Of a stretch of 38,756 nt of DNA, positions 19,173-38,756 are shown one piece after another. The position numbers and the translations under genes were made by a program. Where the stretch lies: contig DAITPE010000001.1 of the NCBI GenBank assembly GCA_036833775.1, positions 1 to 38,756 of the forward strand, read 5' to 3'. Source of the stretch: Pyrinomonadaceae bacterium (GTDB lineage: Bacteria; Acidobacteriota; Blastocatellia; Pyrinomonadales; Pyrinomonadaceae). The notes below the pieces were generated by a model, which was not told where the DNA came from, made no database searches, and worked only from the letters and a program-made list of their open reading frames with translations. Every line of letters begins with the position of its first letter. The stretch's first letter is position 1.

Positions 19173-19207
19173 TTTCGCGCGTTTCTTAAAAACTTGACTG
19201 TTTACAT

Positions 19208-20784: not shown

Positions 20785-20787
20785 AAG

Positions 20788-21093: not shown

Positions 21094-21335
21094 TAATCGA
21101 AAATCTTTGGAATATTTTTTCTCCGATTTGTAATTATTCGTTTGTATGTTGGACGCAATAAACATTCAGACGAAAAATCATCGGCACACACACGCGCAGA
21201 ATCGTTTTGCGGCGATTCCGTTCGCGGAAAAGCTCAGTGCCTGTGAAGAGTTGACGGGAAAAGGCGTTTTTAGTCAGAGATACTGACGGAAACGCGGTCA
21301 GATTGATAGAAAAAGAATAAATTTAAGAGGTTAAA

Positions 21336-23044: not shown

Positions 23045-23156
23045 CGGATAATTTTTGCGCGATTTAATTTAACAGACACTTTTCTTTTACCTTATCTGCC
23101 GACATTTACGCAAATCTATTGGAATAACATCCGATTTTTGTGGAATTAAAAAGCGT

Positions 23157-23600: not shown

Positions 23601-23739
23601 CGGCGAAATTCTCGATTTTGTTGCCGAACCCGTTGAAATTAAAGGAATTGTTTCAAGGATCGGCGATCAGCTTTTTTTTGAAATAAAAATGGAAAACATA
23701 AAACGAATTTCTTGAAATCATTTTTTTTCGAACAGCACA

Positions 23740-24573
23740 ATGAGAACTTTTATACAAAATCTTGGCGCGGCGTTTAATTTTCGGCTTATTCAAACTCCGA
23801 ATTTCTGGTTTGGAAAAATTTTTCGTTTCAAATATCTTCGTGCAGTTTATCGCTTCAGTTCATTTTTTGTGGTGACGTTTTTCCTTTATTTTATATGGCT
23901 TTCCGCGTCTTTTTTTGTTTCGGACAAGGTTCATTGGCGGCAAAAAATGTTCGGGAGTTGGGCAAAGTTTTTCTTAAAAGTTTCAAAAATGAAATTGGAA
24001 ATCAAAGGAAAAATTCCCGAACCGCCGTTTTTTCTCGTTTGCAATCATTTGAGTTACACGGACATTCCGGTTTTGAGAGCGGCGGCAAACGGCGTTTTCG
24101 TTGCCAAAAGCGACGTTCGCAAATGGTTTTTGCTCGGAAAGATCGTTGCCGATGCCGGAACCGTTTTTATTAATCGGCAAAACAAACGCGACATTCCGCG
24201 CGCGGGAAACGAAATCGTCGAAAGAATTTCAAACGGCGAAGGCGTTTTTCTGTTTCCCGAAGGCACGAGTTCGTGCGGAAAAAGCGTTTTGCCGTTTAAT
24301 TCTTCGTTTCTCGAATTTGCCGCACGCGCCGATTTGCCCGTCAGTTATTGTTCCGTTTCTTATCAAACCGAAATCGGCGAAATTACTGCAAGCAAAGCTG
24401 TTTGCTGGTTTGATGAAACGGTTTTTATGACTCATCTTTTTCGTTTTTTCATATTGAAAAAAATATATGCGACGATCACTTTCGGCGATGCGCCCGTAAA
24501 AGACACAAACCGTAAAAAGCTTGCTTCGGCACTTCACGAAAAAGTAGAAAATCTGTTTACTCCGCTTGTTTGA
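23740..24573 (+). CDS. Lysophospholipid (1-acyl-sn-glycerol-3-phosphate-type) acyltransferase, PlsC/OlsA family
   Basis: 277 aa with an N-terminal TM segment. It carries the HX4D motif (CNHLSYTD) and the FPEGTSS motif. Confidence 0.85.
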   Translation: MRTFIQNLGAAFNFRLIQTPNFWFGKIFRFKYLRAVYRFSSFFVVTFFLYFIWLSASFFVSDKVHWRQKMFGSWAKFFLKVSKMKLEIKGKIPEPPFFLVCNHLSYTDIPVLRAAANGVFVAKSDVRKWFLLGKIVADAGTVFINRQNKRDIPRAGNEIVERISNGEGVFLFPEGTSSCGKSVLPFNSSFLEFAARADLPVSYCSVSYQTEIGEITASKAVCWFDETVFMTHLFRFFILKKIYATITFGDAPVKDTNRKKLASALHEKVENLFTPLV

Positions 24574-24667
24574 TGCTTTTTTAATTTATGATTCTAATTT
24601 CAAATTGCCCTTCGATTTTTCAACTTTAAATTAAACTAAAAAACCTGTTTAAGTTGATTCCGCATTC

Positions 24668-24700
24668 AATCTTGAGAAAAAAGTAATGATTTGCTAAAGT
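24668..24700 (+). promoter_or_regulatory. Putative promoter (TTGAGA-17-TAAAGT with TGc extended -10) carrying a 27-nt motif shared with the sufB upstream region
   Basis: AATCTTGAGAAAAAAGTAATGATTTGC (24668-24694) is 24/27 identical to 26370-26396. It lies 48 nt upstream of the Rrf2 ATG. Confidence 0.5.
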
Positions 24701-24742
24701 ATTTCTTGTTATTAAATTGCAAAACTTTGAACAGAGAAAAAG

Positions 24743-25234
24743 ATGAAGATTTCAGCTCAGGAAGAATACGGTTTGCGCTGTTTGGTGCAATTGGCTAATT
24801 TATCCGAAAATGAAGCTTTGACATTGCCGCAAATTGCCGAACGCGAAGGAATTTCCGTGGCAAATGCGGGAAAATTGATGTGGCTTTTGAACAAAGCCGG
24901 ATTCGTTTCGGCAACGCGCGGCACAAAAGGCGGCTACAGCCTTGCGCGTCCGGCGGAAGAAATTTATTTGAGCGAAGTCATCAAGGTTTTGGAAGCCGAC
25001 GAGATCGTTAATCATTGCGACAGCTATAAAGGAATTTTGGACGGATGCGTTCACAAAGGCGGATGCGGAATTCGTCCGGTCATCGTCGGTTTACACGAAA
25101 TTGTGCAAAATGCGCTTTCGCAGATAACTTTGGCGCAAATCGTCGGCGAAGAATCTCGCGTCAACGAAATGTTTCATCAGATTCAAGGAATTCACCGCAC
25201 GATCGAACCGCACCGCATCGGCAACGCCAACTAA
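24743..25234 (+). CDS. Rrf2-family transcriptional regulator with three-Cys cluster-ligand motif (IscR/SufR-like role possible)
   Basis: 163 aa. Rrf2 winged-helix N-terminus (EYGLRCLVQLA......TLPQIAEREGIS...AGKLMWLLNKAGFV.ATRG.KGGY.LAR) and Cys residues in NHCDSYKGILDGCVHKGGCGIRP. Confidence 0.9.
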   Translation: MKISAQEEYGLRCLVQLANLSENEALTLPQIAEREGISVANAGKLMWLLNKAGFVSATRGTKGGYSLARPAEEIYLSEVIKVLEADEIVNHCDSYKGILDGCVHKGGCGIRPVIVGLHEIVQNALSQITLAQIVGEESRVNEMFHQIQGIHRTIEPHRIGNAN

Positions 25235-25277
25235 ATTTTCCGGCTTTATAAGAAAAACTGAAAACTGCTTTTTTGAA

Positions 25278-25360
25278 CGCGGATCGGACGAATCAAGCGG
25301 ATTTTACGGGATATTTATAAAAAATAACCGAACCAATCTGCTTGATTCGTCCGATCCGCG
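25278..25360. repeat. REP-like palindromic element, family 3a (21-bp stem), between convergent genes
   Basis: CGCGGATCGGACGAATCAAGC (25278-25298) is the exact reverse complement of GCTTGATTCGTCCGATCCGCG (25340-25360). It ends 1 nt before the pcs stop codon. Confidence 0.85.
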
Positions 25361-25361
25361 C

Positions 25362-26090
25362 TCAAGATTTTGCGATAGTTTTCGGATTTTTTCTGAAAGT
25401 ATCCATAATCGCCAAAACTCCGTAATACGCCAAACAAGCGTTTGCCATCCATTTCAGCCAACTCGGCGTAGTTGGATAAAACCAAACGATGAGCGGCAGA
25501 ATTATCAAAAAAATCGCCGTAACTGTAAGAGTTGCAAATTTTAACTGCGTTGCCCGCGAAGGATACACAAATTTGATCGGAACAAAATGCAGGATCGCAA
25601 AAAATACGATGACCGCCGCATTGCCCAATTCATTCAACGAAAAAACAAAGATGAGATAAAAAACTACGACATTCCACATCACCGGAAACCCGACGAAATA
25701 AAAATCATCGGAAACCATTCCGTCATTACCGTAATAGATCGCGGAAACCATTAAAATTAAAAAACTTAATGGCAGCGACCAATTTTCCGACACGAGATCG
25801 GATTGATAAAAAAAATACGCGGGAATGATCGCGTAATTGGCAAAATCGATCACGTAATCGATAGTTTTCCCATCAAAATTCGGTAAAACTTCTTTGACTT
25901 TGAATTTTCGGGCAAGAGTTCCGTCAAAACCGTCGATCGCCAATGCGACCAACAGCCAAGCCATTGCAGCACGCCAATTTTTTCCGCTCACAGCCAGAAT
26001 TGCCATAAAACCCGCCAACAATCCCGAAGCCGTAAAAAAATGCGTGAACCAAGCAAAGATTTTGCTTGAAATGTTGTAGCTTTGATTCAT
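25362..26090 (-). CDS. pcs: Phosphatidylcholine synthase (CDP-alcohol phosphatidyltransferase family)
   Basis: Close to rhizobial Pcs as I recall it: HFFTASG, DGFDGTLARKFKVKEVLPNFDGKTIDYVIDF.NY, AIYYGNDGMVSDDFYFVGFPVMWNVVVF, FVPIKFVYP. Start placed at MNQSYN; an in-frame ATG at 26117 is an alternative. Confidence 0.85.
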   Translation of the reverse strand: MNQSYNISSKIFAWFTHFFTASGLLAGFMAILAVSGKNWRAAMAWLLVALAIDGFDGTLARKFKVKEVLPNFDGKTIDYVIDFANYAIIPAYFFYQSDLVSENWSLPLSFLILMVSAIYYGNDGMVSDDFYFVGFPVMWNVVVFYLIFVFSLNELGNAAVIVFFAILHFVPIKFVYPSRATQLKFATLTVTAIFLIILPLIVWFYPTTPSWLKWMANACLAYYGVLAIMDTFRKNPKTIAKS

Positions 26091-26369
26091 CGTCAGAAAA
26101 CACGAAAACACGCACATAGTTGAGTTTTTCTCGGTGCGTGTTTTGCATTATCTCACAATTTTTTTTTGCAGAGTATCATTAAAAATTGTGTCGTCGATTT
26201 TGATTTCGTCTTGAATTCATCTTTTTCGTAAAACGTATTCATTACACGAATCTTATCCGAATTTGCGACCGATTTCCGCCATCAACTGCCGATGTCATTC
26301 GACGATAAATATTTGCGTTAACGCAGGTTTTGCGTAATTGCAGACGATTCAATTTATCAAACCGCGTCT

Positions 26370-26402
26370 AATCTTGACATAAAAATAATGATTTGCGATT
26401 CT
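26370..26402 (+). promoter_or_regulatory. Putative sufB promoter (TTGACA-17-GATTCT, TGc extended -10) carrying the shared 27-nt motif
   Basis: AATCTTGACATAAAAATAATGATTTGC (26370-26396) is 24/27 identical to 24668-24694. Weaker similarity continues for about 25 nt downstream. Confidence 0.5.
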
Positions 26403-26525
26403 TAACTTAGTAAATTTATTGGAAATGCTTGATAAAAAGGAAAATATCGGCACGAAAAAAGACTGCTGCAAGATTGAATTGCAAAGCAAAATTCGCATCC
26501 AATAGGCAACATTCAGGAAATAAAT

Positions 26526-27971
26526 ATGTCATCGCAAGCAACTTTAGAACATCTTGCAAACCGCGAATATAAATACGGTTTTGTCACGGATATTGAAACG
26601 GAAACCATTCCGAAAGGTTTGACGGAAGATACGGTTCGGCTGATCAGCGAAAAGAAAAACGAGCCGGAATGGATGCTCGAATTTCGTCTGAAAGCATTTC
26701 GCCGCTGGCTGGAAATGAAACAACCCGATAATTGGGCAAATTTCGATTATCCAAATGTCGATTTTCAAAATATCACATATTACGCCGCGCCGAAACAAAA
26801 AGCGAAAAAGCAAAGTTTGGACGAAGTTGACCCCGAATTGATCAAAACTTTTGAAAAGCTCGGCATTCCTTTATCCGAACAAAAGATGCTTGCAAACGTC
26901 GCGGTCGATGCGGTTTTCGATTCGGTTTCGGTCGCCACGACATACAAAGAAAAACTCAAAAAAGCGGGTGTAATTTTTATGCCGTTTTCTGAAGCTTTGA
27001 TCGAACATCCCGATCTGATCAAAAAATATCTCGGCTCGGTCGTTCCCGTGAGTGATAATTTCTACGCCGCTTTAAATTCAGCCGTTTTCTCTGACGGTTC
27101 ATTCGTTTTCATCCCGAAAGGCGTTCGTTGCCCGATGGAGCTTTCGACATATTTCCGCATCAATACGCAAGAATCGGGACAGTTTGAACGCACGTTAATT
27201 GTTGCCGAAGAAGGTGCTTACGTTGCATATAATGAAGGCTGCACCGCGCCGCAGTTTGATACGAATCAGCTTCACGCGGCGGTCGTCGAACTCGTCGCGT
27301 TGGACGATGCGGAAATTAAATATTCGACCGTTCAGAATTGGTACGCGGGCGACGAATCGGGCAAAGGCGGAATTTATAATTTCGTGACCAAACGCGGCGC
27401 GTGTCGCGGAAAAAATTCAAAAATCTCTTGGACGCAGGTTGAAACCGGAAGCGCGATTACTTGGAAATATCCGTCCGTTATTCTTCAAGGCGACAATTCG
27501 ATCGGCGAATTTTATTCGGTCGCGCTGACGAACAACGCACAGATCGCCGACACGGGAACGAAGATGATTCACATCGGCAAAAATACGAAATCGACCATCG
27601 TTTCAAAAGGAATTTCTGCCGGAAAATCAAATAATTCGTATCGCGGACTTGTAAAAGTGATGCCGAAAGCCGAAGGCGCGAGAAATTATACGCAATGCGA
27701 TTCGATGCTCATTGGCGGCAAATGTGAAGCGAACACTTTTCCGTATATCGAAGTGATGAACAATTCGGCGCGTGTCGAACACGAAGCGACGACTTCCAAA
27801 ATCAGCGAAGAACAATTGTTTTATCTCCAACAGCGCGGCATCTCGCAGGAAGACGCAGTTTCATTAATAATCAACGGTTTTTGCAAAGAAGTTTTCCGCG
27901 AACTCCCGATGGAATACGCCGTCGAAGCGCAAAAACTTCTCGGACTGAAACTGGAAGGAAGCGTCGGTTAA
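26526..27971 (+). CDS. sufB: Fe-S cluster assembly scaffold protein SufB
   Basis: 481 aa with canonical SufB blocks throughout ([63 protein letters not shown]). Confidence 0.95.
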
Positions 27972-27975
27972 AAAT

Positions 27976-28494
27976 ATGTATTGTCCGAATTGCGGAGCTA
28001 AGAATAACAAAAAGCAGAATTTCTGCCGTTATTGCGGCTTGCATTTGCAAAACATTGAAAAAGTATTTTCTAATCAGCTCGTTTTCGGAACGGAAACGAA
28101 ACGGCTGAAAAGTTTGAGGCAAATCAGACAAATAACCGATTACGTGCAGTTTTTTACGTTTTTTACGCTCGCTTTGGGATTGATATTTTTGTTTTATGAT
28201 TCGTCATTCGGAAAAATGCTGATAACGGCGAGCTTGCTGGCATATTTTCTGGCAGAAACAGTGCGTCAGATTTACGGTTATTTCCAACGTCAGGATTCGG
28301 CGAAAAACAAAGAATCGGAAAATTTTAATACTTCTTCAAAAAACGAATTTGAAGCCAAAGAAACAAATAAACTTCTCGAAGAAAAACCCTTTGTTGCTGC
28401 TTCGAGCGTGACCGAAAATTCGACCGAATTACTGATCGAAAAGGTAAAAGTTAAAAATTCGGATTTGAATGTCGAAGAGACAAGACAATTGTGA
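27976..28494 (+). CDS. Zinc-ribbon membrane protein (N-terminal CxxC-x12-CxxC, two TM helices, polar tail)
   Basis: 172 aa. MYCPNCGAKNNKKQNFCRYCG is followed by two hydrophobic helices. It starts 4 nt after the sufB stop. Confidence 0.6.
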   Translation: MYCPNCGAKNNKKQNFCRYCGLHLQNIEKVFSNQLVFGTETKRLKSLRQIRQITDYVQFFTFFTLALGLIFLFYDSSFGKMLITASLLAYFLAETVRQIYGYFQRQDSAKNKESENFNTSSKNEFEAKETNKLLEEKPFVAASSVTENSTELLIEKVKVKNSDLNVEETRQL

Positions 28495-28495
28495 A

Positions 28496-28882
28496 ATGAA
28501 CAAAATCAAGTTGCCTAACACACCCGAACCGAAAGGTCATTATTCGCCAGCCGTAGAATTTAACGGCTTAATTTTTGTGTCGGGACAATTGCCGATGAAT
28601 CACGCGACGGGTGAAGTCGAAACGGGCGATATTGAAAAACAAACCGAGCTTGCTTTGCGAAATGTCGAGGCGATTTTGTCGGCGGCAAACAGCGATCTGA
28701 ATCACGTTTTGCAGATGACGATCTATGTTTCGGAAATGGAACTTTGGGACAAGGTGAACGAAGTTTACAAACGCATTTTGGGCGAACACAAACCGGCGCG
28801 AGCAATCGTTCCCGTGAAAGATTTGCATTTCGGAACGAAAATCGAAATTCAGGCAATCGCGGCGTTGAAAGAAGAAATTTGA
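28496..28882 (+). CDS. ridA: RidA/YjgF/L-PSP family reactive-intermediate deaminase
   Basis: Start set at MNKIKLPNT. Blocks YSPAV.....IFVSGQ.P and RA.V.V..L......EI.AIA. Confidence 0.9.
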   Translation: MNKIKLPNTPEPKGHYSPAVEFNGLIFVSGQLPMNHATGEVETGDIEKQTELALRNVEAILSAANSDLNHVLQMTIYVSEMELWDKVNEVYKRILGEHKPARAIVPVKDLHFGTKIEIQAIAALKEEI

Positions 28883-28946
28883 ACCGCAGATTTACGCGGA
28901 TAAAACCAAAAATAACATCTGTGTTTATCCGCGTAAATCTGCGGTT
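28882..28946. repeat. REP-like palindromic element, family 3b (23-bp perfect stem, 19-nt loop)
   Basis: AACCGCAGATTTACGCGGATAAA (28882-28904) is the exact reverse complement of TTTATCCGCGTAAATCTGCGGTT (28924-28946). It begins at the last base of the ridA stop codon. Confidence 0.9.
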
Positions 28947-28955
28947 AATAGTTTT

Positions 28956-29738
28956 ATGAAATTAGACATTTATCAGGTTGACGCATTCACGAGCGAAGTT
29001 TTCGGCGGAAATCCGGCGGCGATTTGTCCTTTGGAGGAATGGCTTGAAACAGATTTGATGCAGAAAATTGCGCTTGAAAATAATTTGAGCGAAACGGCAT
29101 TTTTTGTAAAAAAAGATGATGTTTACGAGATTCGCTGGTTTACGCCGACTTATGAGATCGATCTTTGCGGACACGCGACTTTGGCGAGTGCGTATGTGAT
29201 TTTTGAAATTTTGAAAACGGAAGAAAGTCTCGTGAAATTTCATTCGTACAAAAGCGGTGCACTCGAAGTCGAAAAACAAGGCGATCGTTTAACTCTCGAT
29301 TTCCCTTCGCGTCCCGTTTTAAAAACCGAACTTCCCGAAGGTTTAAGCGAAGCGATCGGAAAAGAACCGCAAGAAACTTACAAAGCGCGTGATTATTTTC
29401 TGGTTTATGAAACAGAACAAGACGTTTTAGAAATTCAGCCGAATTTCTCAAAACTATTGGAAGTCGGCGGACACGGTTTTATCGTTACGGCAAAAGGCGA
29501 AAATTCGGATTTCGTTTCACGCTTTTTTGCGCCCGAAGTCGGCGTTTTTGAAGACCCTGTGACGGGTTCGGCACATTGCAATCTGATCCCGTTTTGGGCG
29601 GAAAGATTGGGCAAAACAGAACTTTTTGCAAAACAAGTTTCTGCTCGCGGCGGTGAACTTTTTTGTAAACTCGAAGGCGACCGTGTGAAGATCGGCGGAA
29701 ATGCAGTTTTGTATTTGAAAGGTGAAATTTATGTCTAA
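28956..29738 (+). CDS. PhzF-family isomerase/epimerase-like protein
   Basis: 260 aa with QVDAFT...F.GNPAA.C, ETAF and CGHATLA motifs. Confidence 0.9.
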   Translation: MKLDIYQVDAFTSEVFGGNPAAICPLEEWLETDLMQKIALENNLSETAFFVKKDDVYEIRWFTPTYEIDLCGHATLASAYVIFEILKTEESLVKFHSYKSGALEVEKQGDRLTLDFPSRPVLKTELPEGLSEAIGKEPQETYKARDYFLVYETEQDVLEIQPNFSKLLEVGGHGFIVTAKGENSDFVSRFFAPEVGVFEDPVTGSAHCNLIPFWAERLGKTELFAKQVSARGGELFCKLEGDRVKIGGNAVLYLKGEIYV

Positions 29739-30351
29739 AACTGCGATTGTCATTTTCGATAAATTTACCGATCTCGACCTTTGGCTGATGTGGGATTTGC
29801 TGAATCGTGTCAAAGTCGAAAACTGGGAAGTAAAGATTTTAGGCGAAAAAGATTTTCACGTTTCGGCGACGAATATCGAAGTAAAAACTAACGGAAAAAT
29901 CGAAGAAGCAAACAATGCCGATGCCGTGCTTTTTATCAGCGGACAAGGAACGCGTGATCGAATCGCAGATGAAAATTGGCTTGGAAAGTTTGATTTGAAC
30001 CCCGAAAAGCAACTGATTGGTTCGATTTGTTCGGGAAGCTTGATCTTGGCAAAACTCGGACTTTTGCAAGGAAAAACGGCAACGACTTATCCGACATCGA
30101 AAGCGGTTTTGGAAAGTTTCGGCGTTGAAGTTGTCGAAAAACCTTTTGTCGCGCACGGAAATGTCGCTACGGCAGGCGGTTGTTTGGCGCAGCAATATTT
30201 AATTCACTGGGTGATCGAAAATCTGGCTGATAAAGATTGGGCGGATTTGGTCGTCAAAGCCGTTCAGCCCGTCGGCGAAGGTTTGTTTTTTGAAGACGCG
30301 GAAGAGTTGAAAAAACTTTACGCGCCAATGACGAGCGCAGTCACAAATTAA
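29731..30351 (+). CDS. DJ-1/PfpI-family protein
   Basis: About 206 aa with the nucleophile-elbow Cys in IGSICSGSLILAKLGLL.GK.ATT. The ATG overlaps the phzF-like 3' end by 8 nt. Confidence 0.85.
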   Translation: MSKTAIVIFDKFTDLDLWLMWDLLNRVKVENWEVKILGEKDFHVSATNIEVKTNGKIEEANNADAVLFISGQGTRDRIADENWLGKFDLNPEKQLIGSICSGSLILAKLGLLQGKTATTYPTSKAVLESFGVEVVEKPFVAHGNVATAGGCLAQQYLIHWVIENLADKDWADLVVKAVQPVGEGLFFEDAEELKKLYAPMTSAVTN

Positions 30352-30375
30352 AAAGTATCTCTGTTATTTGAAAAA

Positions 30376-31053
30376 ATGGTTCAATATTATCTAACTACAT
30401 TTTTTTTATTTCTAACTTTCGGAACTGTAATCTCTGCACAGACAACGACTTACGATACCGATTTTCAGATTTGGAACGATACGCAGTTTATAATTCCGCT
30501 TAATGAAAAGAAAGATTTGACCGCGACGATCTGGGTTTTCGGGCGTTTGGGAAATAATCTAAAAACCGCGACTGATGCGCGAATCGGCGGTTTGATAAAT
30601 AAAAAGGTCAACAAAAATCTGACGTTGAGCGCGGGTTATTTGTATCGCTACTCAAATACTACTTTTACGCAGAAAAGATATGAAAGCCGCTATCTCGGCA
30701 TCGCAACCGCGACGCTTCCGCTCGGCAAAAAGTTTACGCTCGTAAATCGGAATATGTATCAATACGAAGACCGATATTCGCGCCCGAATGCAAGCGTCGT
30801 GCGAAGCCGTTTTTGGTTGAAACGCGAAATTACAGTAGCGAAAAAGAAAATCGAACCGTTTGTTTCGTTTGAGCCATTTTACGATTTTCGGCTCAAAAAT
30901 TTTGCCAGATACCGAACTCAAGTTGGTTTTTCGCATAAATTAAACGCAAAATTTTCGGCTGATTACTATTACGTCCGCCAAGACGAAACCGGAAACGGAA
31001 CGCGTCCGGGAACTTTGAACGGAATCGGTTCGAGTTTTAGAGTTAATTTTTAA
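30376..31053 (+). CDS. Secreted beta-rich protein, probable outer-membrane beta-barrel (DUF2490-like)
   Basis: 225 aa with a signal peptide (FFLFLTFGTVISAQ). It has alternating-hydrophobicity strands, frequent aromatic-X-aromatic patterns and a C-terminal F. The DUF2490 call is from memory. Confidence 0.55.
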   Translation: MVQYYLTTFFLFLTFGTVISAQTTTYDTDFQIWNDTQFIIPLNEKKDLTATIWVFGRLGNNLKTATDARIGGLINKKVNKNLTLSAGYLYRYSNTTFTQKRYESRYLGIATATLPLGKKFTLVNRNMYQYEDRYSRPNASVVRSRFWLKREITVAKKKIEPFVSFEPFYDFRLKNFARYRTQVGFSHKLNAKFSADYYYVRQDETGNGTRPGTLNGIGSSFRVNF

Positions 31054-31070
31054 GGTTAGATTTAAAAATA

Positions 31071-31104
31071 GAGGCAAACAAGAATTTATTTTTCTGTTTG
31101 CCTC
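31071..31104 (+). terminator. Terminator-like hairpin downstream of the DUF2490-like gene
   Basis: GAGGCAAACA (31071-31080) pairs with TGTTTGCCTC (31095-31104). There is no clean U-tract after it, so the call is tentative. It is followed by a 155-nt gap before the next gene. Confidence 0.4.
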
Positions 31105-31259
31105 ATAAACTCGGCAGTTAAAAAACTTAAATCTTGATTTTTTTTTCAAGTTTTAATGAAATCGGTCTTTGAAACGAGATTTTAAGCTTTCTTTTTTGAT
31201 ATAATGCAAAGCAAACAAGCGATTTTCTTTGAAGATTTCGGATTGTTTATCGAATAAAA

Positions 31260-32030
31260 ATGCTCGCAGAGATCAAAAAGGAATTGGCGCGAATCGAAGA
31301 CGAAAGCGAGATTAAAATCCTACTCGCCGTCGAATCGGGCAGCCGCGCTTGGGGATTTGCTTCGGCAGACAGCGATTGGGATGTGCGCTATATTTACATC
31401 CATAAATTAGATTGGTATTTGAAAATCGACGAGCAAAAAGATTCGCTCGAAGAAATTTTGCCGAACGAGCTCGATCTTTCGGGTTGGGAATTAAAAAAAG
31501 CCTTAAAACTTTTCCGAAAATCGAATCCGCCGATGCTCGAATGGTTGCGAAGCCCGATAATTTACACGGAACAATTTTCGACTGCCGAAAAATTGCGTGA
31601 ATTCAGCCAAACGTATTTCAATCCGAAATCGTGTATGTATCATTATTTGAGTATGGCGAAAGGAAATTTCAAGGAATTTTTACAGCGCGATGCGGTTCGT
31701 CTGAAAAAATATTTCTACGTTTTGCGCCCTGTTTTGGCGTGCGATTGGATCAAGGAAACGAATTCGTTTCCGCCGATGGAATTTAAAAAACTGCTCGATT
31801 CGCAAGTAAAAGATGCAATAATTCGCTGCGAAATCGATGAATTATTGAAACGTAAGATCGCGGGCGACGAAATGAAGGAAGAACCGAAAATCGATATTTT
31901 GAATGAGTTTTTGGAAGAAAAGATAAATTTTTACAACGATTTTGTCGGCGAAATCGAAGCTAACGAAAAGCCGAACACAGAAATGCTCGACACGCTTTTC
32001 AAAGAAACGATTTTTGAGGTTTGGAAATAA
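31260..32030 (+). CDS. Pol-beta-superfamily nucleotidyltransferase, RlaP/PF10127-like
   Basis: 256 aa. ILLAVESGSRAWGFASADSDWDVRYIYIH is the characteristic GS-x-motif plus acidic-residue block of this family. Confidence 0.8.
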   Translation: MLAEIKKELARIEDESEIKILLAVESGSRAWGFASADSDWDVRYIYIHKLDWYLKIDEQKDSLEEILPNELDLSGWELKKALKLFRKSNPPMLEWLRSPIIYTEQFSTAEKLREFSQTYFNPKSCMYHYLSMAKGNFKEFLQRDAVRLKKYFYVLRPVLACDWIKETNSFPPMEFKKLLDSQVKDAIIRCEIDELLKRKIAGDEMKEEPKIDILNEFLEEKINFYNDFVGEIEANEKPNTEMLDTLFKETIFEVWK

Positions 32031-32240
32031 ATGAAAGACGGAATTTGTCCGAAATGTAAGTCGGAAGAAGTATATATTGATACTGCAAACAGGCACGGAA
32101 TTATCGTTCCGGTGCATAGTTTGGCAACTCGCCCAACGCATTTATACGTTTGTGTGGATTGCGGTTATCTCGAATTTTATGCACGGACGGGCTTTGATTT
32201 GCAAAAGGTAAAAGAAAAATTCAAAAAAGTTAAAAATTAA
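32031..32240 (+). CDS. 69-aa zinc-ribbon protein (CPKC...CVDCG)
   Basis: The ATG directly abuts the TAA of the nucleotidyltransferase gene (TAAATG). Two CxxC pairs are 46 residues apart. Confidence 0.55.
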   Translation: MKDGICPKCKSEEVYIDTANRHGIIVPVHSLATRPTHLYVCVDCGYLEFYARTGFDLQKVKEKFKKVKN

Positions 32241-32255
32241 GGAAATTTAATAAAA

Positions 32256-33008
32256 ATGTTATTAGAAATAAAAGATTTACACGCAGGAATCGAAGGAAAA
32301 GAGATTTTAAAAGGCTTGAATTTGACGGTCAATAAAGGCGAAGTTCACGCGATTATGGGACCGAACGGTTCGGGAAAATCTACTTTGTCGAAAGTTTTAG
32401 CCGGTCATCCAAGTTATGAAGTAATTTCGGGCGAAGTAGTTTACGAAGGCAAAAATCTGCTCGAACTCGAACCCGACGAACGCGCTCGGAGCGGCGTTTT
32501 TCTCGCGTTTCAATATCCGGTCGAAGTTCCGGGCGTTTCAAATTCGCAGTTTTTGCGGCTCGCTTACAATGAAAAAATGAAGCATTTGGGCGAAGAAGAA
32601 CTCGATCCGCTCGAATTCAACGATTATTTGACGGAAAAAGCGAAGATCGTCGAAATGGACAAATCGTTTTTCAAGCGTTCGGTCAACGAAGGCTTTTCGG
32701 GCGGTGAAAAGAAACGCAATGAAATTTTGCAAATGGCTGTTTTAGAACCGAAGCTCGCGATTCTTGACGAAACCGATTCAGGATTGGACATCGATGCTTT
32801 GCGAATCGTTGCCGAAGGCGTAAATAAATTGCGTTCATCAGAAAACGGAATAATTCTCGTCACACATTATCAACGGCTTTTGAATTACATTCAGCCTGAT
32901 TTTGTGCACGTTTTGGCAAACGGAAAAATCGTCAAAGAAGGCGGCAAAGAATTGGCTTTAGAATTAGAAGAAAAAGGCTACGATTGGGTAAAAGCGGCGA
33001 CTAAATAA
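32256..33008 (+). CDS. sufC: Fe-S cluster assembly ATPase SufC
   Basis: 250 aa. Walker [13 protein letters not shown] signature FSGGEKKR, Walker [13 protein letters not shown], plus the SufC-typical N-terminus LEIKDLHA. Confidence 0.95.
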
Positions 33009-33010
33009 GC

Positions 33011-33031
33011 GCGAATTTGAGGCAAATTCGC
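33011..33031 (+). other. Small hairpin between sufC and the following membrane-protein gene
   Basis: GCGAATTTG-agg-CAAATTCGC (9-bp stem, 3-nt loop), followed by an A-run rather than a U-run. It is therefore not a standard terminator on the + strand. Confidence 0.35.
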
Positions 33032-33038
33032 AAAAAAT

Positions 33039-35174
33039 ATGACACAAAAATCCGAATCGAAAAATTCAAATCTTGCATTGATTCTAAAGGTTTTGTGGGC
33101 AGCGGTTTTGCTCTTCGGCTTTTTATATTTTCGCGGCGAAGATTTGGGCAAATTAGGCAGTTTGCTCGGAAATTTGACCGACGGAAAACTGTTCGGCGCA
33201 AACGGTTTCGGCGAAAGCATTGCAGGAATTTTCAGCGCGAGTTTGATCGCCGCTTCGTGGTTCGGTTTCGGTTCTTTGATAACGAATTTGTTGAAAAAGT
33301 TTTTTGCCAAAGATGAAAACGCGGAAAATGATTCGCCGTTTTTGGAAACGGCAAGAAGTTTTGCGGTCGGCGCGGGAATTTGGTCGCTGATCTGGTTTTT
33401 TCTCGGAATTTTCGGCGCGTATAACAAAATTTCGGCGATTGTTGCAGTAATTTTCGGCGTTTGTTTGGCTGTTTGGAAGTTTTTGGAAAACCGAAAATCG
33501 GTTGAAAAATCGAACGAAAATTTCGATATTGCCGGAAAAATCGCGTTTGGATTGGTTTTATTTTTGCTGGTTTTGGCATTGATTTCGGCGATTGCGCCGC
33601 CGATTGCGAAAGATACTTTGCTTTATCATTTTGCCGTTCCGAAAAACTTTATCGCCGCCGGAAATAATTCGGTAATTGAAGGAAACATTGCGAGTTATCT
33701 CGCTTTGGGAACGGAAATGCACGTCGTTTGGGCGATGCTTTTGGGAAATTCCGTCAACGCACGTGTTGGAGAAATTTCCGCCGGAGTTACGGTTTTCGCG
33801 TTTTTGCCGATTCTACTCGTCGCAATTTACGGTTGGTCGCGCGAACTCGGATTGAATAAAACTTGGGCGATGATTTCCGCGCTTCTTTTTGCGAGCATTC
33901 CGACGGTTTATCACGTTGCTTCGGGCGGTTATATCGATCTTGCGCTGACGCTTTTCGTGACGCTTGCGGTTCATTCGATTGCGCGTTGGTGGCACGATCT
34001 GAGCAATGAAAGATTGGTTTTTGCGGCAATTTTGCTCGGTGCGGCTTTGTCGGTAAAACTGACGGCGGCGTTTACGATAATTGCGCTTGCTTTCATCGTT
34101 TTATTGCGAATCCGCGAAGAACAAACGGCTGAAAAACCGCAAATTACGCAGATTTTTACGAAAGGATTTTTGACATTTCTGGCGGCGGGACTTTTGGCAA
34201 GTCCTTGGTATTTGCGTGATTGGGCTGCAACCGGAAGCCCGATCTTTCCTTTTTATATGAATTTATGGAAAGGAACCGCGACGGGTTGGGATTCGGAAAG
34301 ATCGGTTCTTTTTCAAGTGATAAATACGCATTACGGCGGATTTCCGAAAGGAATCACTGATTATTTGATCTCGCCTGTGATGATTTCGCTCAGAGCACAA
34401 CCAGAACTTCCCGAATTTTTCGACGGCGTTTTGGGAATCGCGTTTTTATTCGGAATTCCTTTAATTATTTGGGCTTGGCGGCGTTCGCTTTTGAAAACGG
34501 AACTGAAACTGGGAATTTTGGTCGCAGGTTTGCTGTTTTTATTCTGGCTTTTTACGAGTCAACAGCTTCGTTATCTGCTGCCGATTTTTCCAATTTTGGC
34601 AATTTCGATCTGTTTTTCGGCGAGCTTGCTTTCGCTTGAAAATAAACTTTCAAAGCAAGTTTGGACGGCTATCTTTTTGATAATTTCATTTGTCGGCACG
34701 GGCGTGACGCTGGCTTGGTTTGCGCAAAAAAGTCCTTTGCAGGTTGCACTCGGCGGTGAGACGCGCGACGAATATTTGACGGCGAACATTGATTATTATC
34801 CGTATTATCAACTAATTAACACCCAATTGCCGCCGGATGCGAAAGTTTGGCTGATAAATATGCGGCGCGATTCTTATCTGATTGAAAAACCGTATTTTTC
34901 GGATTATATGTTTGAAGATTGGACGCTGAAACAGTTTTCGGAAGAATCGAATTCGGTTAATGAACTTCGCGCAAAGGCGAAAAAATTAGGCATTACGCAT
35001 ATTTTGGCACGGCACGATTTTCTACTCGATTTCGATAAATCGGTCGTCGTCGATCCGCAAAAACGAACCGAAACGGAAAATCGCAAAAAACTGCAAATGG
35101 TGAAAGATTTTATATTAGACGGCAATAATACGCTCAAAGCGGACAAGCGTTTCAGTCTTGCAAAACTGCCGTAA
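33039..35174 (+). CDS. Large polytopic membrane protein, GT-C-fold (ArnT/PMT_2-like) glycosyltransferase candidate with C-terminal soluble domain
   Basis: 711 aa with more than 12 hydrophobic helices. An Asp-containing first-loop motif (IAPPIAKDTLLYHF) sits where GT-C enzymes carry catalytic acidic residues. The C-terminal ~150 aa are hydrophilic. Confidence 0.6.
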   Translation: MTQKSESKNSNLALILKVLWAAVLLFGFLYFRGEDLGKLGSLLGNLTDGKLFGANGFGESIAGIFSASLIAASWFGFGSLITNLLKKFFAKDENAENDSPFLETARSFAVGAGIWSLIWFFLGIFGAYNKISAIVAVIFGVCLAVWKFLENRKSVEKSNENFDIAGKIAFGLVLFLLVLALISAIAPPIAKDTLLYHFAVPKNFIAAGNNSVIEGNIASYLALGTEMHVVWAMLLGNSVNARVGEISAGVTVFAFLPILLVAIYGWSRELGLNKTWAMISALLFASIPTVYHVASGGYIDLALTLFVTLAVHSIARWWHDLSNERLVFAAILLGAALSVKLTAAFTIIALAFIVLLRIREEQTAEKPQITQIFTKGFLTFLAAGLLASPWYLRDWAATGSPIFPFYMNLWKGTATGWDSERSVLFQVINTHYGGFPKGITDYLISPVMISLRAQPELPEFFDGVLGIAFLFGIPLIIWAWRRSLLKTELKLGILVAGLLFLFWLFTSQQLRYLLPIFPILAISICFSASLLSLENKLSKQVWTAIFLIISFVGTGVTLAWFAQKSPLQVALGGETRDEYLTANIDYYPYYQLINTQLPPDAKVWLINMRRDSYLIEKPYFSDYMFEDWTLKQFSEESNSVNELRAKAKKLGITHILARHDFLLDFDKSVVVDPQKRTETENRKKLQMVKDFILDGNNTLKADKRFSLAKLP

Positions 35175-35201
35175 AAGATTTTAATAAAAAGGTTTATAAA
35201 A

Positions 35202-36338
35202 ATGACACAAGTTGTGAAAGAAACGATTTATACAAATTATTTCAAAGAATTTATTGCCAACGAAAACAATGGCGAACTGAAAAATCTGCGCGAAAAAGCG
35301 TTTGAGTTTTTCACGGAAAACGGTTTTCCGACGCCGCAAAATGAAGAGTGGAAATATACGAACGTAAAGCCGATTTCGGATTTGGGATTTCGGATTTGGG
35401 ATTTGAAATCGAGCGATGGCGTGAACGAATTTTTGAAGCAATTTAATTTTGAACGCAACGGATTTACGGCGTTGAATCTGGCGTTTGCGAATGTCGTTTT
35501 GGTGACGATTCCGAAGGAAACTTCGGTCGAAAAACCGATCGAATTTAATTTCAATGCAGAAGAAAATTCGGCGAATTTTCCGCACATTATCGTCGTTGCC
35601 GAAGCCGGAAGTAAAGCGACGATCATCGAAAATTACGAATCGAGCGCGGAAAGTTTTACGAATACGGCAATTCAGATTTTCGTCGCGGAAAACGCGAATC
35701 TGACGCATTATCGCGTCCAAAAAGAATCGGCAGAAGCGTTTCACATCGGGACGACTGAAATCACTCTAAAACGCGGAAGTCTTTATAATTCAACGAATAT
35801 AAACTTGGGAGCAAAATTGTCGCGGCACGATATTCATCTGAAATTTACCGAAGAAGGCGGCGAAGCGTTTGTTGACGGACTTTATATGCTTTCGGGCGAA
35901 CAGCATCACGACACGCATTCGGAAATCGATCACGCACTTCCGAACTGCGTTTCGCATCAAACCTACAAAGGCGTTTTGAACGACAAATCGCGCGGAGTTT
36001 TCAACGGCAAAGTTTTCGTCCGCGAAAACGCTTCGGGAACCGACGCACAGCAATCGAACAAAAATCTTCTGCTTTCAAACGACGCGCGGGTTGACACAAA
36101 ACCGCAGTTAGAGATTTTCAACGACGACGTAAAATGTTCGCACGGCGCAACCGTCGGGCAGTTGGAAGACGAAGAATTGTTTTATTTATTGAGTCGCGGT
36201 TTGAACGAAAGTTTGGCAAAAAATCTTTTGACTTACGGTTTCGCGGAAGAAATCGTGAATAAGATCGAAATCGAATCGATCAAAAAAGAATTGGACGAAG
36301 CGGTTTTGAATCGTTTGAATACGAGTTTAGAAGCGTAG
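35202..36338 (+). CDS. sufD: Fe-S cluster assembly protein SufD
   Basis: 378 aa with the SufD C-terminal beta-helix blocks (H......Q.YKGVL.D.SRGVF.GKV.V......TDA.Q.N.NLLLS..A.VDTKP.LEI..DDVKCSHGATVG). Confidence 0.9.
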   Translation: MTQVVKETIYTNYFKEFIANENNGELKNLREKAFEFFTENGFPTPQNEEWKYTNVKPISDLGFRIWDLKSSDGVNEFLKQFNFERNGFTALNLAFANVVLVTIPKETSVEKPIEFNFNAEENSANFPHIIVVAEAGSKATIIENYESSAESFTNTAIQIFVAENANLTHYRVQKESAEAFHIGTTEITLKRGSLYNSTNINLGAKLSRHDIHLKFTEEGGEAFVDGLYMLSGEQHHDTHSEIDHALPNCVSHQTYKGVLNDKSRGVFNGKVFVRENASGTDAQQSNKNLLLSNDARVDTKPQLEIFNDDVKCSHGATVGQLEDEELFYLLSRGLNESLAKNLLTYGFAEEIVNKIEIESIKKELDEAVLNRLNTSLEA

Positions 36339-36353
36339 TTTGAGGTAAAAATT

Positions 36354-36596
36354 ATGAGCGAAATTTTGACGATGGAAGAGATCGAAAAAAAATATGACGG
36401 CGAATGGGTTTTGATCGAAGATGTCGAAGCCAATGAGCAGTTGGAGATTCTGCGCGGAAAAGTAACTTATCACGGTAAAGATAAAAACGAGCTGCATCAG
36501 ATAGCGATGAAATCTGAATCAAAACATCTCGCTTCGCTGTTCATCGGCAAACCCGATCCGAATATGGGATTTATGTTGGGCTTTGAAAACGTATAA
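36354..36596 (+). CDS. DUF5678-like small protein
   Basis: 80 aa. The YDGEWVLIEDVE......G.V.YHG.DK.EL pattern recalls DUF5678. GAGGT lies upstream of the ATG. Confidence 0.55.
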   Translation: MSEILTMEEIEKKYDGEWVLIEDVEANEQLEILRGKVTYHGKDKNELHQIAMKSESKHLASLFIGKPDPNMGFMLGFENV

Positions 36597-36602
36597 ATTT
36601 TT

Positions 36603-36986
36603 ATGAAATTTAAGTTTAAAGCCGATTACGGATTGGTTTACGTGCGCGTCAAAGTCGGTTTTGCAGATAAAGAATTCATATTGAATTTGGCACTCGACAC
36701 AGGCGCAAGCGGCACGATAATTTCGGCGAAAAAATTGCGCGAAGTCGGTTACGATTTGGACAATCCCGAAGATGAAATTTATATCACGACCGGAAGCGGT
36801 TTGATATTTGTTCCGAAGATTACGATTGAAAAATTGACGGCGTTAGGCAAAGAAGTTTCGGATTTTGTCGTCATCGCTCACGATTTCCCGCCGACATCGA
36901 GCGTTGACGGCGTTTTAGGTTTGGACTTTTTGCGTGAAAGCATTTTGACGGTTGATTTTGTGGAAGGTGAAATTGAATTAATTTGA
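36603..36986 (+). CDS. Retropepsin-like (clan AA) aspartic protease
   Basis: 127 aa with the catalytic LALDTGASGTIIS and the flap/dimer block DGVLGLDFL. Confidence 0.85.
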   Translation: MKFKFKADYGLVYVRVKVGFADKEFILNLALDTGASGTIISAKKLREVGYDLDNPEDEIYITTGSGLIFVPKITIEKLTALGKEVSDFVVIAHDFPPTSSVDGVLGLDFLRESILTVDFVEGEIELI

Positions 36987-36989
36987 AAA

Positions 36990-37271
36990 ATGTTGAAAGC
37001 GATTTTTGTGACAGCAGAAGTTATAAAAGGGCAAGACAAAAAGACTCTTGTTGTAAATGGTGAGTTACAAGAAGGAGAAATTCAAGTAGGAATGTTTCTA
37101 AAAATTGCTTTTAACGCTTCTTTCGGAATGACAGTTCCGATTTCAAAAATTGTAAATAAATCTGGAAATCAAATGACTTTGATTTTAGATTGCAAAGATG
37201 AAGAAGGTGCAAATTTCGTTGAATCAATGAATTTTGAACATGAATGGGTTGAAATTCAAGACGAAGAATAA
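36990..37271 (+). CDS. Hypothetical 93-aa protein (EF-Tu domain-2-like small beta-barrel flavour), visibly lower GC than its neighbours
   Basis: The ORF is tightly packed, 3 nt after the protease stop and 4 nt before the sufS ATG. The GELQEGEIQVGMFLKI pattern resembles translation-protein beta-barrels. AT-rich codons dominate. Confidence 0.5.
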   Translation: MLKAIFVTAEVIKGQDKKTLVVNGELQEGEIQVGMFLKIAFNASFGMTVPISKIVNKSGNQMTLILDCKDEEGANFVESMNFEHEWVEIQDEE

Positions 37272-37275
37272 AAAT

Positions 37276-38517
37276 ATGACAGCAGTAAAAGAAATGAGCA
37301 ATTTTGATGTAAATAAAGTTCGTGCGGATTTTCCGGTTTTGTCGCAGACGGTGAACGGCAAGCCGCTCGTTTATCTCGACAACGGCGCGTCTTCGCAAGT
37401 GCCGAATCTGGTGATCGAGCGCGGTTCAAAATATTTGGCGGAAGAGCATTCGAATATTCATCGCGGTGTGCATTATTTGTCGCAACACGCGACGACGGCT
37501 TATGAAGCGGCGCGTGAAAAGGTGAAACGCTTTATCAATGCGCCGTCGGCGAAGGAATGCATTTTCGTGCGCGGCTGCACCGAAGGCGTGAATTTGGTTG
37601 CTTATTCCTACGGTCGAAAATTTATCGGCGAAGGCGACGAAATTATTCTTTCGCAGATGGAACATCACGCCAATATTATTCCTTGGCAGGTCATCGCGGA
37701 AGAAAAAGGCGCGAAAATTCGTGTGATTCCGATGAATGAACGCGGCGAACTCATCATTGAAGAATACGAAAATATGCTCAATGAGCGGACGAAAATCGTT
37801 GCGATCACGCACGTTTCAAATTCACTCGGAACGATCAATCCGGTCAAAGAAATGATCGCCACGGCTCATAAATTCGGCGTTCCCGTGCTGATTGACGGAG
37901 CGCAGGCGATTCCGCATTTTCCGGTTGACGTGCAGGATTTGGACGCGGATTTTTATACTTTTTCGGGTCATAAAATGTTTGCGCCGACGGGTTCGGGCGT
38001 GCTTTTCGGAAAGAAAGAATGGCTCGACAAAATGCCGCCGTATCAAACCGGCGGCGGGATGATTCGCACCGTCACGTTTGAAAAAACGACTTACGCGCCG
38101 ATTCCCGAAAAATTCGAAGCCGGAACGCCCGCGATCGCGGCAAACATCGGTTTAGGCGCGGCGGTTGATTATTTGAATTCGATCGATTTCGAAGCCGCCG
38201 CAAAATACGAACACGAATTGCTTGAATACGCGACCGAAAAACTTTCCGCGATCGAAGGCGTAAAAATCATCGGAACGGCAAAAGAAAAAGCGTCGGTGAT
38301 TTCGTTCACGATCGAAAATGTTCACCCGCACGACATCGGCACGATCTTAGATCAACAAGGAATCGCCGTTCGCGCCGGACATCATTGCGCTCAGCCCGTA
38401 ATGCAGTTTTTCGACGTTCCCGCGACGGCTCGCGCTTCGTTCGCTTTTTACAACACGAAGGAAGAAGTGGATAAATTAGCCGAAGCGATTCAAAAAGTTA
38501 TTGATGTTTTTGCTTAA
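37276..38517 (+). CDS. sufS: Cysteine desulfurase SufS (group II, PLP-dependent)
   Basis: Start at MTAVKEMSNFD. PLP-Lys block FSGHKMFAPTGSGVL and active-site Cys loop RAGHHCAQP. Confidence 0.95.
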   Translation: MTAVKEMSNFDVNKVRADFPVLSQTVNGKPLVYLDNGASSQVPNLVIERGSKYLAEEHSNIHRGVHYLSQHATTAYEAAREKVKRFINAPSAKECIFVRGCTEGVNLVAYSYGRKFIGEGDEIILSQMEHHANIIPWQVIAEEKGAKIRVIPMNERGELIIEEYENMLNERTKIVAITHVSNSLGTINPVKEMIATAHKFGVPVLIDGAQAIPHFPVDVQDLDADFYTFSGHKMFAPTGSGVLFGKKEWLDKMPPYQTGGGMIRTVTFEKTTYAPIPEKFEAGTPAIAANIGLGAAVDYLNSIDFEAAAKYEHELLEYATEKLSAIEGVKIIGTAKEKASVISFTIENVHPHDIGTILDQQGIAVRAGHHCAQPVMQFFDVPATARASFAFYNTKEEVDKLAEAIQKVIDVFA

Positions 38518-38556
38518 AAAGAGTTAATATTTTGATAACTCAGGAGTTCAAAATAT

Positions 38557-38756
38557 ATGACAAAATTTCTAAGCATAATGCTTGTACTTTTTTCGGCAAC
38601 GGTAGTAAATGCCAGCCAAAATTATTTGGTTAGCAATCAAAACTTGTTCACAAAAGCAACGATGAACTGTCTTAACGGCGATGTGCTCAACTGTATGGGC
38701 GGAGCAGACGGTCATCATATTTATGAAGAAGAAACGGAATGCCCGGTCGGCGGTGA
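38557..38756 (+). CDS. Secreted Cys-containing protein, N-terminal fragment (runs off the window)
   Basis: ATG at 38557 with AGGAG 10 nt upstream. Signal peptide MTKFLSIMLVLFSATVVNA. The frame is open to the window edge. Not in the ORF track. Confidence 0.5.
   Translation, partial: MTKFLSIMLVLFSATVVNASQNYLVSNQNLFTKATMNCLNGDVLNCMGGADGHHIYEEETECPVGG

Follow-up and report, generated by a model that had tools for sequence, protein, structure and literature searches.

Interrupted suf operons in the Pyrinomonadaceae and a possible route of gene cassette entry at suf gene ends

Introduction

The canonical suf operons, which encode a system of iron-sulfur (Fe-S) cluster assembly, are contiguous, as with sufABCDSE of Escherichia coli and sufCDSUB of Bacillus subtilis. 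The partner protein in B. subtilis is of the SufU type (PMC4934914; PMC5571166). Here, the suf locus was analyzed in a 38,756-nt stretch of DNA from a Pyrinomonadaceae bacterium (NCBI GenBank assembly GCA_036833775.1, contig DAITPE010000001.1, positions 1 to 38,756 of the forward strand; hereafter, the window) and compared with that of its relatives, whose loci are labeled L001 onwards. The locus shares with the canonical operons the same SufB/SufC/SufD/SufS core, an Fe-S-type regulator gene upstream and, in the relatives, a SufU as in B. subtilis; it differs in that the suf genes are never all contiguous, the sufB-sufU interval holding up to ~20 extra genes in relatives such as L083, and in that no sufA or sufE was seen. 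An earlier reading of the window (the original prediction) had described a suf cluster split into four pieces by inserted genes, and had proposed either a hotspot for gene capture or the functional recruitment of some of these genes.

Homology-facilitated illegitimate recombination was put forward for type VI effector-immunity arrays and Rhs orphan arrays (PMC5361080), and the core defense hotspots of Pseudomonas aeruginosa lie between core genes (PMC10250203). SufB of Mycobacterium tuberculosis carries an intein (PMC8891592), RidA genes are found clustered with those for cysteine desulfurases in diverse bacteria (PMC4433059), and IscS is a major target of 2-aminoacrylate in P. aeruginosa (PMC9239102). 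No prior description of interrupted suf operons in Acidobacteria was found in the literature. The account that we favor, with a probability of about 0.6, is that of a family-typical interrupted suf operon that gathers cassettes by recombination anchored in the conserved ends of suf genes.

Results

The gene map was based on the list of open reading frames (ORFs) and on Pfam and NCBIfam profile scans of the window proteins; genes are on the forward strand (+) unless marked (-). The core genes are sufB at 26526-27971 (SUFBD_core PF01458, 1e-80; 481 aa), sufC at 32256-33008 (ABC_tran PF00005, 8e-24; 250 aa), sufD at 35202-36338 (SUFBD_core PF01458, 1e-88) and sufS, a class V aminotransferase cysteine desulfurase, at 37276-38517 (Aminotran_5 PF00266, 1e-149). 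The family scans thus identified the SufB/SufD scaffold, the SufC ATPase and the pyridoxal phosphate (PLP)-dependent desulfurase SufS of a SUF system. The ORF list and the scans agreed with the original prediction on the order, positions and orientation of the four genes and on the three inserts that part them; the suf genes are split by 7 + 1 + 3 genes (total given as 12), every one on the + strand.

The main set of relatives consisted of the best 80 species-representative SufD loci (64-89% SufD identity, each from a different assembly), and 6 further contigs brought the total to 86 loci. Nearly all are labeled Pyrinomonadaceae, Blastocatellia or Acidobacteria and belong to metagenome-assembled genomes. 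Synteny was determined by tblastn plus our own ORF calling and clustering; protein searches with SufD and with the GT-C-fold glycosyltransferase (GT-C) encoded between sufC and sufD listed close family members only (identity of at least 76% and at least 49%, respectively). The backbone common to the relatives is rrf2-sufB-[..ridA-phzF..]-sufC-[GT-C]-sufD-[..]-sufS-[..]-sufU. With neighbors scored as adjacent at a gap of ≤100 nt, sufB and sufC were adjacent in 0/56 loci (gap 790-7075 nt, median 3.6 kb), sufC and sufD in 12/75 (median 2.1 kb), sufD and sufS in 21/74 (gap up to 2.8 kb), and sufS and sufU in 5/52 (median 2.2 kb, up to 8.3 kb). The span from sufB to sufS is 6.5-14.2 kb in the relatives versus 4.6 kb of core coding sequence, and the window, with 12.0 kb, is typical. 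The sulfur acceptor of the relatives is encoded by a NifU_N (SufU-type) gene at a median of 2.2 kb downstream of sufS. The window ends 239 nt past sufS, within a co-directional ORF with a signal-peptide-like N-terminus (38557-38756, cut by the window end) that is probably the first gene of the sufS-sufU slot; the relatives' sufU lies further downstream, and that of the window is presumably beyond its end. The remark of the original prediction that neither sufU nor sufE comes after sufS therefore reaches past the sequence covered by the window.

Among the relatives, full-length matches of SufB are 88-95% identical in protein sequence and those of SufC 85-96%; for the window and L001, its closest relative from the genome collection, the identity of SufB is 94% in protein and 86% in DNA. 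Judged by these identities, the suf genes are under strong purifying selection. Because the interruption was found across the family, an interrupted suf operon is ordinary for Pyrinomonadaceae. The original prediction had allowed that its finding would lose its force if relatives had the same order as a deep, lineage-wide arrangement with an independent promoter for each block: synteny bore out the first part, and independent promoters were not found in the window.

The sufB-sufC insert of the window (4284 nt, 7 genes) begins with a gene for a zinc-ribbon membrane protein (27976-28494; GC 37%), which follows sufB by 4 nt (TAAAAATATG). Next come ridA, of the enamine/imine deaminase subfamily (28469-28882; TIGR00004), and genes identified by family scans as a phzF-family isomerase (28956-29738), a DJ-1/PfpI family protein (29722-30351; patchy, ~11 loci) and a DUF2490 protein with a signal-peptide-like N-terminus (30376-31053; 8 loci). 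The insert closes with an RlaP nucleotidyltransferase gene (31260-32030; Pfam 1e-90; ~14 loci), which in relatives is often followed by a small Zn-ribbon gene, and a gene for a 69-aa zinc-ribbon protein (32031-32240; GC 38%). The single gene between sufC and sufD encodes, by family scan, a 711-aa GT-C-fold (family 39 / PMT_2-like) membrane glycosyltransferase (33039-35174). Three genes fill the sufD-sufS insert (36354-37271): c1 (36354-36596; 80 aa, no family match), its partner c2, a retropepsin-like aspartyl protease gene (36603-36986; Pfam 8e-10), and c3 (36990-37271; 93 aa, no family match; GC 0.32, GC at third codon positions 0.21). As the original prediction had noted, junctions are mostly short, ranging from -26 to 30 nt save for two of 73 nt and 206 nt (12/14 ≤30 nt or overlapping). 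Also in agreement with it, no transposase or integrase domain was found in the scanned window proteins (Pfam/NCBIfam), and repeat searches found no flanking repeats around the inserts. Family scans found no toxin or antitoxin family above cutoff among the window passengers. When defense-system models were run on the window, only c2 matched (PADLOC PDC-M08B, 6e-16) and its neighbors c1 and c3 matched nothing; PDC-M08 is a candidate defense system, and a full system requires components A and B.

Apart from ridA, phzF and GT-C, the passengers of the window are patchy among relatives (tally given as 9/12). Some 240 ORF families fill the slots of the relatives (148 family representatives match 106 Pfam families), and each passenger family stays in one slot. 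Toxin-antitoxin, restriction-modification and nuclease genes are abundant in this variable pool. The pool includes VapB/MazE-like genes with PemK/MazF, HicB-like genes with HicA, MqsA-like antitoxin genes and MNT with HepT; DUF4160, Uma2, PD-(D/E)XK nuclease and IS200-like Y1 transposase genes; HEPN_AbiU2, XisH/XisI, a DNA methylase with its neighbor, and GNAT acetyltransferases; and an SbtA-type permease, carbonic anhydrase, SpoIIE phosphatase and DUF3703.

Slot contents differ between close relatives. In L001 (SufD 89%), dj1 and DUF2490, both kept in the window, are deleted with a stub of the dj1 3′ end left, and a MazEF-type pair stands at the place of c1-c2-c3. In L081 (SufD 86%), c1 is frameshifted, c2 nearly gone and c3 intact, while L083 (SufD 85%) lacks GT-C and has ~20 extra genes between sufB and sufU. 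The 89 homologs of c1 have source names that are solely Pyrinomonadaceae or soil metagenomes; c1 comes directly after sufD in L085, L086 and five loci of the first set, and at another place of the sufD-sufS slot in L006 and L009. Because its ortholog in L081 is 77% identical (aa), c3 is a real gene; its GC of 0.32 versus 0.43-0.49 for the suf genes marks it as compositionally foreign, and by this measure it was probably acquired recently from a donor of low GC. The capture hotspot of the original prediction is supported by the turnover of slot contents between close relatives and by recombination scars at cassette borders in other loci, though the window itself is scarless.

Further slot genes were recorded. 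A housekeeping gene, for formate-tetrahydrofolate ligase, lies between sufS and sufU in 21 loci (L026:14314-16017 and 20 others), and its product (mean 90.5%) exceeds the Suf proteins in conservation. Genes of the Transposase_31 family (Rpn-type recombination-promoting nucleases) with DUF4351 lie in the sufB-sufC slot (L085:1-621 and 5302-6273; L086:2144-3124); they might serve as helpers of illegitimate recombination. A second, distant SufS-like aminotransferase (~30% identity) is encoded 7-8 kb downstream of sufS in two loci (L039:20189-20932; L041:19034-20152).

When each locus was compared with itself, at least 18 relatives were found to have cassettes bordered by a 21-123 nt copy of the end of the neighboring suf gene. 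On the 3′ side, the intact suf gene is followed by 1-4 cassette genes, then by a copy of its 3′ end of 21-123 nt and then by the next gene; at 5′ ends the pattern is mirrored. The first cassette gene begins no more than ~50 nt past the suf stop codon, and the 3′ copy ends at or a few nt from the stop codon. Such remnants were found of the 3′ ends of sufB (L002, L005, L015, L083), sufC (L009, L019), sufD (L009, L019, L048) and sufS (L012, L019, L029, L040, L064), and of the 5′ ends of sufC (L016), sufS (L005, L006, L083, L085, L086) and sufU (L061, L066, L075). The 3′-end copies lie downstream of the cassettes and the 5′-end copies upstream; the remnant was on the expected side in 21/21 terminal cases and likewise in three more.

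Intact and remnant copies are 84-100% identical, and ~63/89 mismatches fall at codon position 3. In a 62-mismatch subset the excess at position 3 gave p = 7e-9 against an expectation of 1/3 and p = 9e-5 against 0.45, the value that we ourselves estimate for the case that the end was duplicated in place and the remnant then decayed neutrally. Since the mismatches are mostly at codon position 3, the two copies appear to have diverged as working alleles in different lineages, which suggests that the cassette came along with a piece of a foreign suf gene. Both multi-megabase contigs of the set, L085 and L086 (4.5 and 5.3 Mb, with names that suggest closed genomes), carry scars. L086 has a 54-nt identical copy of the sufS 5′ end before a MazE-PemK pair, and L085 has two stacked sufS 5′ remnants, one of which gives the start of a methylase gene: the DNA methylase gene at L085:11280-12209 opens with the first 28 nt of sufS and uses the displaced sufS start codon. 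In L083, the ortholog of the window's zinc-ribbon gene (87% identity) is parted from sufB by three cassette genes, for a 237-aa protein, MNT and HepT, and has before it a sufB 3′ remnant together with the AAAAATATG junction that is found in the window. By this comparison, L083 shows the "after" state of the sufB|Zn-ribbon junction of the window.

Under the account that we favor, each suf gene junction would act as a slot for extra genes, and the passengers, mostly co-directional and a few bases apart, would be expressed by read-through from the suf promoter. New cassettes would enter by recombination anchored in the conserved suf gene ends along one of two routes: homology-facilitated illegitimate recombination, in which one crossover in the anchor gene is combined with illegitimate joining at the opposite end, or the looping out of a circle between such repeats and its integration by a single crossover. 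Either route would bring in a foreign gene end and displace the resident end as a short remnant. Cassettes would later erode by frameshift and deletion, and inserts that run counter to the operon or stop transcription would be removed by selection, as the downstream suf genes would be cut off.

ridA, phzF and GT-C behave differently from the patchy passengers. In the loci counted, ridA occupies the sufB-sufC slot in 41, often as two paralogs, and phzF in 47; GT-C is in the sufC-sufD slot of 39-46 loci, at 46-57% identity and 85% in the closest relatives, and its orthologs among the matches listed are mostly labeled Pyrinomonadaceae or Blastocatellia. All three have native base composition in the window and, by placement and composition, are long-term residents of their slots. 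RidA of the window scores 117.3 bits against a TIGR00004 cutoff of 106.25 and is thus a RidA-subfamily member; its translation shows a 'KPARAIVPV' motif whose arginine was assigned as the catalytic one in a by-eye alignment. These genes are the strength of the recruitment proposal, by which the inserted genes, at least these three, serve Fe-S assembly in a true extended suf operon, with RidA clearing the 2-aminoacrylate that inactivates the PLP enzyme SufS and DJ-1 handling electrophile stress. The three are near-universal in their slots, and by analogy with the clustering of RidA and cysteine desulfurase genes elsewhere (PMC4433059) and with IscS as a 2-aminoacrylate target in P. aeruginosa (PMC9239102), protection of SufS by RidA is plausible; the idea is not new. 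The window resembles those cases in having a RidA-subfamily gene near a cysteine desulfurase system and differs from them in that ridA sits between sufB and sufC, 8 kb from sufS. We consider recruitment an unlikely account of the locus as a whole: the non-resident passengers are patchy, the pool abounds in genes of toxin-antitoxin, restriction-modification and nuclease type without a link to Fe-S chemistry, and even the residents can be missing, ridA in L053, phzF in L061, and GT-C in many relatives including L083. We know of no biochemical link of a PhzF or GT-C enzyme to Fe-S assembly. What remains of the recruitment offered by the original prediction is the long placement and native composition of the residents, which fits recruitment or at least long co-residence.

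A dedicated site-specific system of integron or transposon type, with a recombinase that recognizes suf gene ends, would also yield insertions that are precise, directional and slot-specific, as those here are. The recombinase could be encoded elsewhere or in the cassettes, the candidates being Rpn/Transposase_31, IS200/RAYT-like Y1 transposase and XisH/XisI, all of which have genes in the slots of some relatives, and genome-specific palindromes flank ridA in several loci. Such a system is improbable because the border repeats vary in length from 21 to 123 nt and because the targets are the ends of five genes, at both ends, with the A-rich context of start codons as the sole shared sequence; in addition, most cassette borders are without a palindrome and no integrase or transposase was found among the scanned window proteins.

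Upstream of rrf2, 48 related loci share a motif, AATCTTGAC(A)AAAAAGTAATGATTTG, with a TTGACA -35 box. It has two matches in the window versus 0 expected by chance: copy 1 (AATCTTGAGAAAAAAGTAATGATTTG; 24668-24693(+)) is 50 nt upstream of rrf2, and copy 2 (26370-26395(+)), an exact match, is 131 nt upstream of sufB and is presumed from its position to mark the start of the suf transcript. A promoter-like site, TTGAGA-17-TAAAGT, was found at 24672-24700, and the candidate Rrf2 target sequence is AATCTTGACAAAAAAGTAATGATTTG. The product of rrf2 (24743-25234; Pfam Rrf2 PF02082, 1.9e-29) is IscR-like and, as in Rrf2/IscR-type regulators, has a winged-helix domain and three clustered cysteines (Cys92, Cys102 and Cys108, from the translation); the suf operon is probably under Rrf2 control. 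rrf2 abuts sufB in 36/51 relatives, and the distance of 1291 nt in the window is the largest of 51. It holds a reverse-strand gene for a membrane protein (25362-26117(-); a CDP-alcohol phosphatidyltransferase match below the Pfam cutoff), no homolog of which was found in any related locus, and, between this gene and the convergent rrf2, a long palindrome (25273-25365; arms 44 nt; fold -55 to -58 kcal/mol) that is likely a bidirectional terminator. Thus the single insertion against the common direction is accompanied by a promoter copy of its own for the downstream genes.

Because the window has no motif copy from sufB to sufS, we infer one long suf transcript, possibly attenuated or stabilized at two hairpins. 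The first is a perfect, REP-like hairpin with a 22-bp stem (28883-28946(+); -36 kcal/mol) that fills the 73-nt gap after ridA and may be an attenuator or an mRNA stabilizer; the second (31071-31104) lies in the 206-nt gap before rlaP (31054-31259(+)), which is without a copy of the family promoter motif and is possibly an attenuator too. The original prediction had proposed about three transcription units; when 24500-38756 was scanned for consensus promoters and terminators, the counts were near or only moderately above those of shuffled sequence and thus uninformative. In three RNA-seq libraries, contigs of relatives cross the rrf2-sufB, ridA-phzF and sufD-c1-sufS junctions, which supports polycistronic transcripts in the relatives, with DNA contamination of the libraries possible.

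The same features bear on whether the locus is an ordinary neighborhood and not one operon, with an own promoter for each block and co-direction due to replication-strand bias or chance. The two hairpins and the 206-nt gap would suit such blocks, as would the weaker motif copies inside the cluster in 7 relatives and the positive GC skew across the region. Yet 12/14 junctions of the window are ≤30 nt or overlapping, the only two promoter motifs of the window are both upstream of sufB, and the RNA-derived contigs of relatives cross several junctions. Strand bias within the cluster far exceeds that of the flanks of the same loci: among ORFs of ≥80 aa, 425/487 passengers (~87%) are co-directional versus 178/334 (53%) in the flanks (Fisher 5e-27), and several of the opposite-strand passenger ORFs overlap conserved genes and are artefacts of antisense calling. 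Separate blocks are thus very unlikely.

An assembly chimera or a decaying spare suf copy that tolerates insertions, suggested by the metagenomic origin of the window and most relatives, is highly improbable, since the same architecture recurs in >80 independent assemblies, the best 80 SufD loci each coming from a different one, and with its scars in the 4.5 and 5.3 Mb contigs, since one DNA run from activated sludge holds 98% of the sampled words of the window region, and since each of the four suf genes has its full length and shows strong purifying selection.

Several further features of the window and its relatives were noted. An nfu gene (Nfu_N + NifU domains) lies at 1586-2149(-), 24 kb upstream of sufB, and so far from suf, as originally described. 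Gene starts in 26500-37280 have A-rich tracts before the start codon (…AAAAATG, TAAAAATATG) with no Shine-Dalgarno sequence evident, a context that resembles that of Bacteroidota. A 10.5-kb mixed-strand stretch (14153-24667) separates glpD (12584-14149) from the rrf2 promoter; it encodes two GNATs, two divergent ECF sigma factors (19208-19777(-) and 20179-20784(+)), TANGO2, an acyltransferase, an ATP-grasp protein and a VTT/ATP-grasp protein. The rrf2 promoter of L081 directly adjoins glpD. In L001, a CRISPR-like array (L001:1-907; 36-37 nt repeats every ~73 nt) lies directly upstream of rrf2-suf, where the window has no array. Tandem 21-nt units (6553-6842; at least 9 registers) in the ORF at 6573-6875 encode a heptad-like repeat protein (…LRKVS/LRTVS…). 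Intergenic palindromes of repeated heptamers of the GGCACAAAAG type were found in the window at 3670-3729, 7647-7736 and 11788-11909; those of relatives have a genome-specific unit, CACAGAG, CACATAG or CACGAAT (L075:3990-5000, L070:4895-5445, L024:1840-1980).

Discussion

Several results weigh against a capture mechanism anchored in suf gene ends. The mechanism was read from relatives and the junctions of the window are clean: a search of the window for suf gene-end remnants gave only noise at the DNA and protein level. The nearest-relative test of which copy is the foreign one was inconsistent, L012 fitting and L002 and L015 not. From locus to locus, cassettes resembled each other no more than the Suf proteins or sufS DNA of the flanks did, with slightly higher identity of the MazEF cassette than of the flanks in the L001-L083 pair alone, so that recent horizontal spread of particular cassettes is not demonstrated. 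The RNA libraries hold relatives only and may contain DNA, transcription could end at either of the strong hairpins (28883-28946 and 31071-31104), and the comparison was confined to family-level relatives and to one operon.

Of the described systems, type VI, Rhs and CDI orphan arrays (PMC5361080) are alike in having a conserved gene as homology anchor, in leaving the displaced end as an orphan remnant, here seen in relatives, and in stacking successive events, as with the two sufS 5′ remnants of L085. They differ in that the anchors here are housekeeping Fe-S genes, five of them and at both ends, and that the cargo is unrelated to the function of the anchor. The core-gene defense hotspots (PMC10250203) likewise hold variable accessory and defense-type genes bounded by core genes, with recombination in the flanks probable; the suf slots, in contrast, lie inside one presumably essential operon, at every junction of it, and show strict co-orientation, few-nt junctions and allelic gene-end remnants. 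The intein of M. tuberculosis SufB (PMC8891592) has counterparts in L011, L028 and L081, which carry a ~360-codon insert in sufB (sufB ~2.5 kb). In L081 (sufB 755-3277, 840 aa) the insert has a LAGLIDADG_3 homing-endonuclease domain and is thus an intein, another selfish element in the same operon, and the two extein halves form a recombination mosaic, with identities to the window of 79.8% and 92.5%; sufB of the window (481 aa) is without an intein.

Like integrons, the locus has cassettes that lie in one direction behind a shared promoter and turn over fast; those of the window show no promoter recognizable as their own. Unlike in integrons, the border repeats are copies of gene ends and the cassettes are interleaved with the suf genes instead of standing in an array apart. 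No IntI integrase was found in the scanned window proteins or among the 25 most frequent Pfam families of the relatives' slot genes, and the border repeats seen are gene ends and not attC-like, although no search aimed at attC structures was made. We raise tentatively, as somewhat doubtful, the broader idea that across the family the suf operon could be an integrase-free, integron-like capture platform in which suf gene ends act as attachment sites through homology alone, and in which each arriving cassette would supply a new gene end and depend on the promoter of the operon for its expression.

If this is true, selfish modules (toxin-antitoxin, restriction-modification, nucleases and the intein) would exploit a locus that the cell presumably cannot silence or delete, supposing that the operon is essential and the only suf copy, and a conserved, highly expressed operon would be a safe harbor for selfish genes. 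For annotation, "split" suf operons should be regarded as normal in Pyrinomonadaceae, and ridA, phzF and the GT-C glycosyltransferase are flagged as long-term companions of the SUF system with a possible Fe-S role. With >80 lineages and five anchor genes, the locus would be a replicated natural case of gene entry without dedicated mobile-element machinery, and its series of insertion, stacking and erosion could be used to estimate the rates and homology needs of anchored recombination in uncultured Acidobacteriota of soil and sludge.

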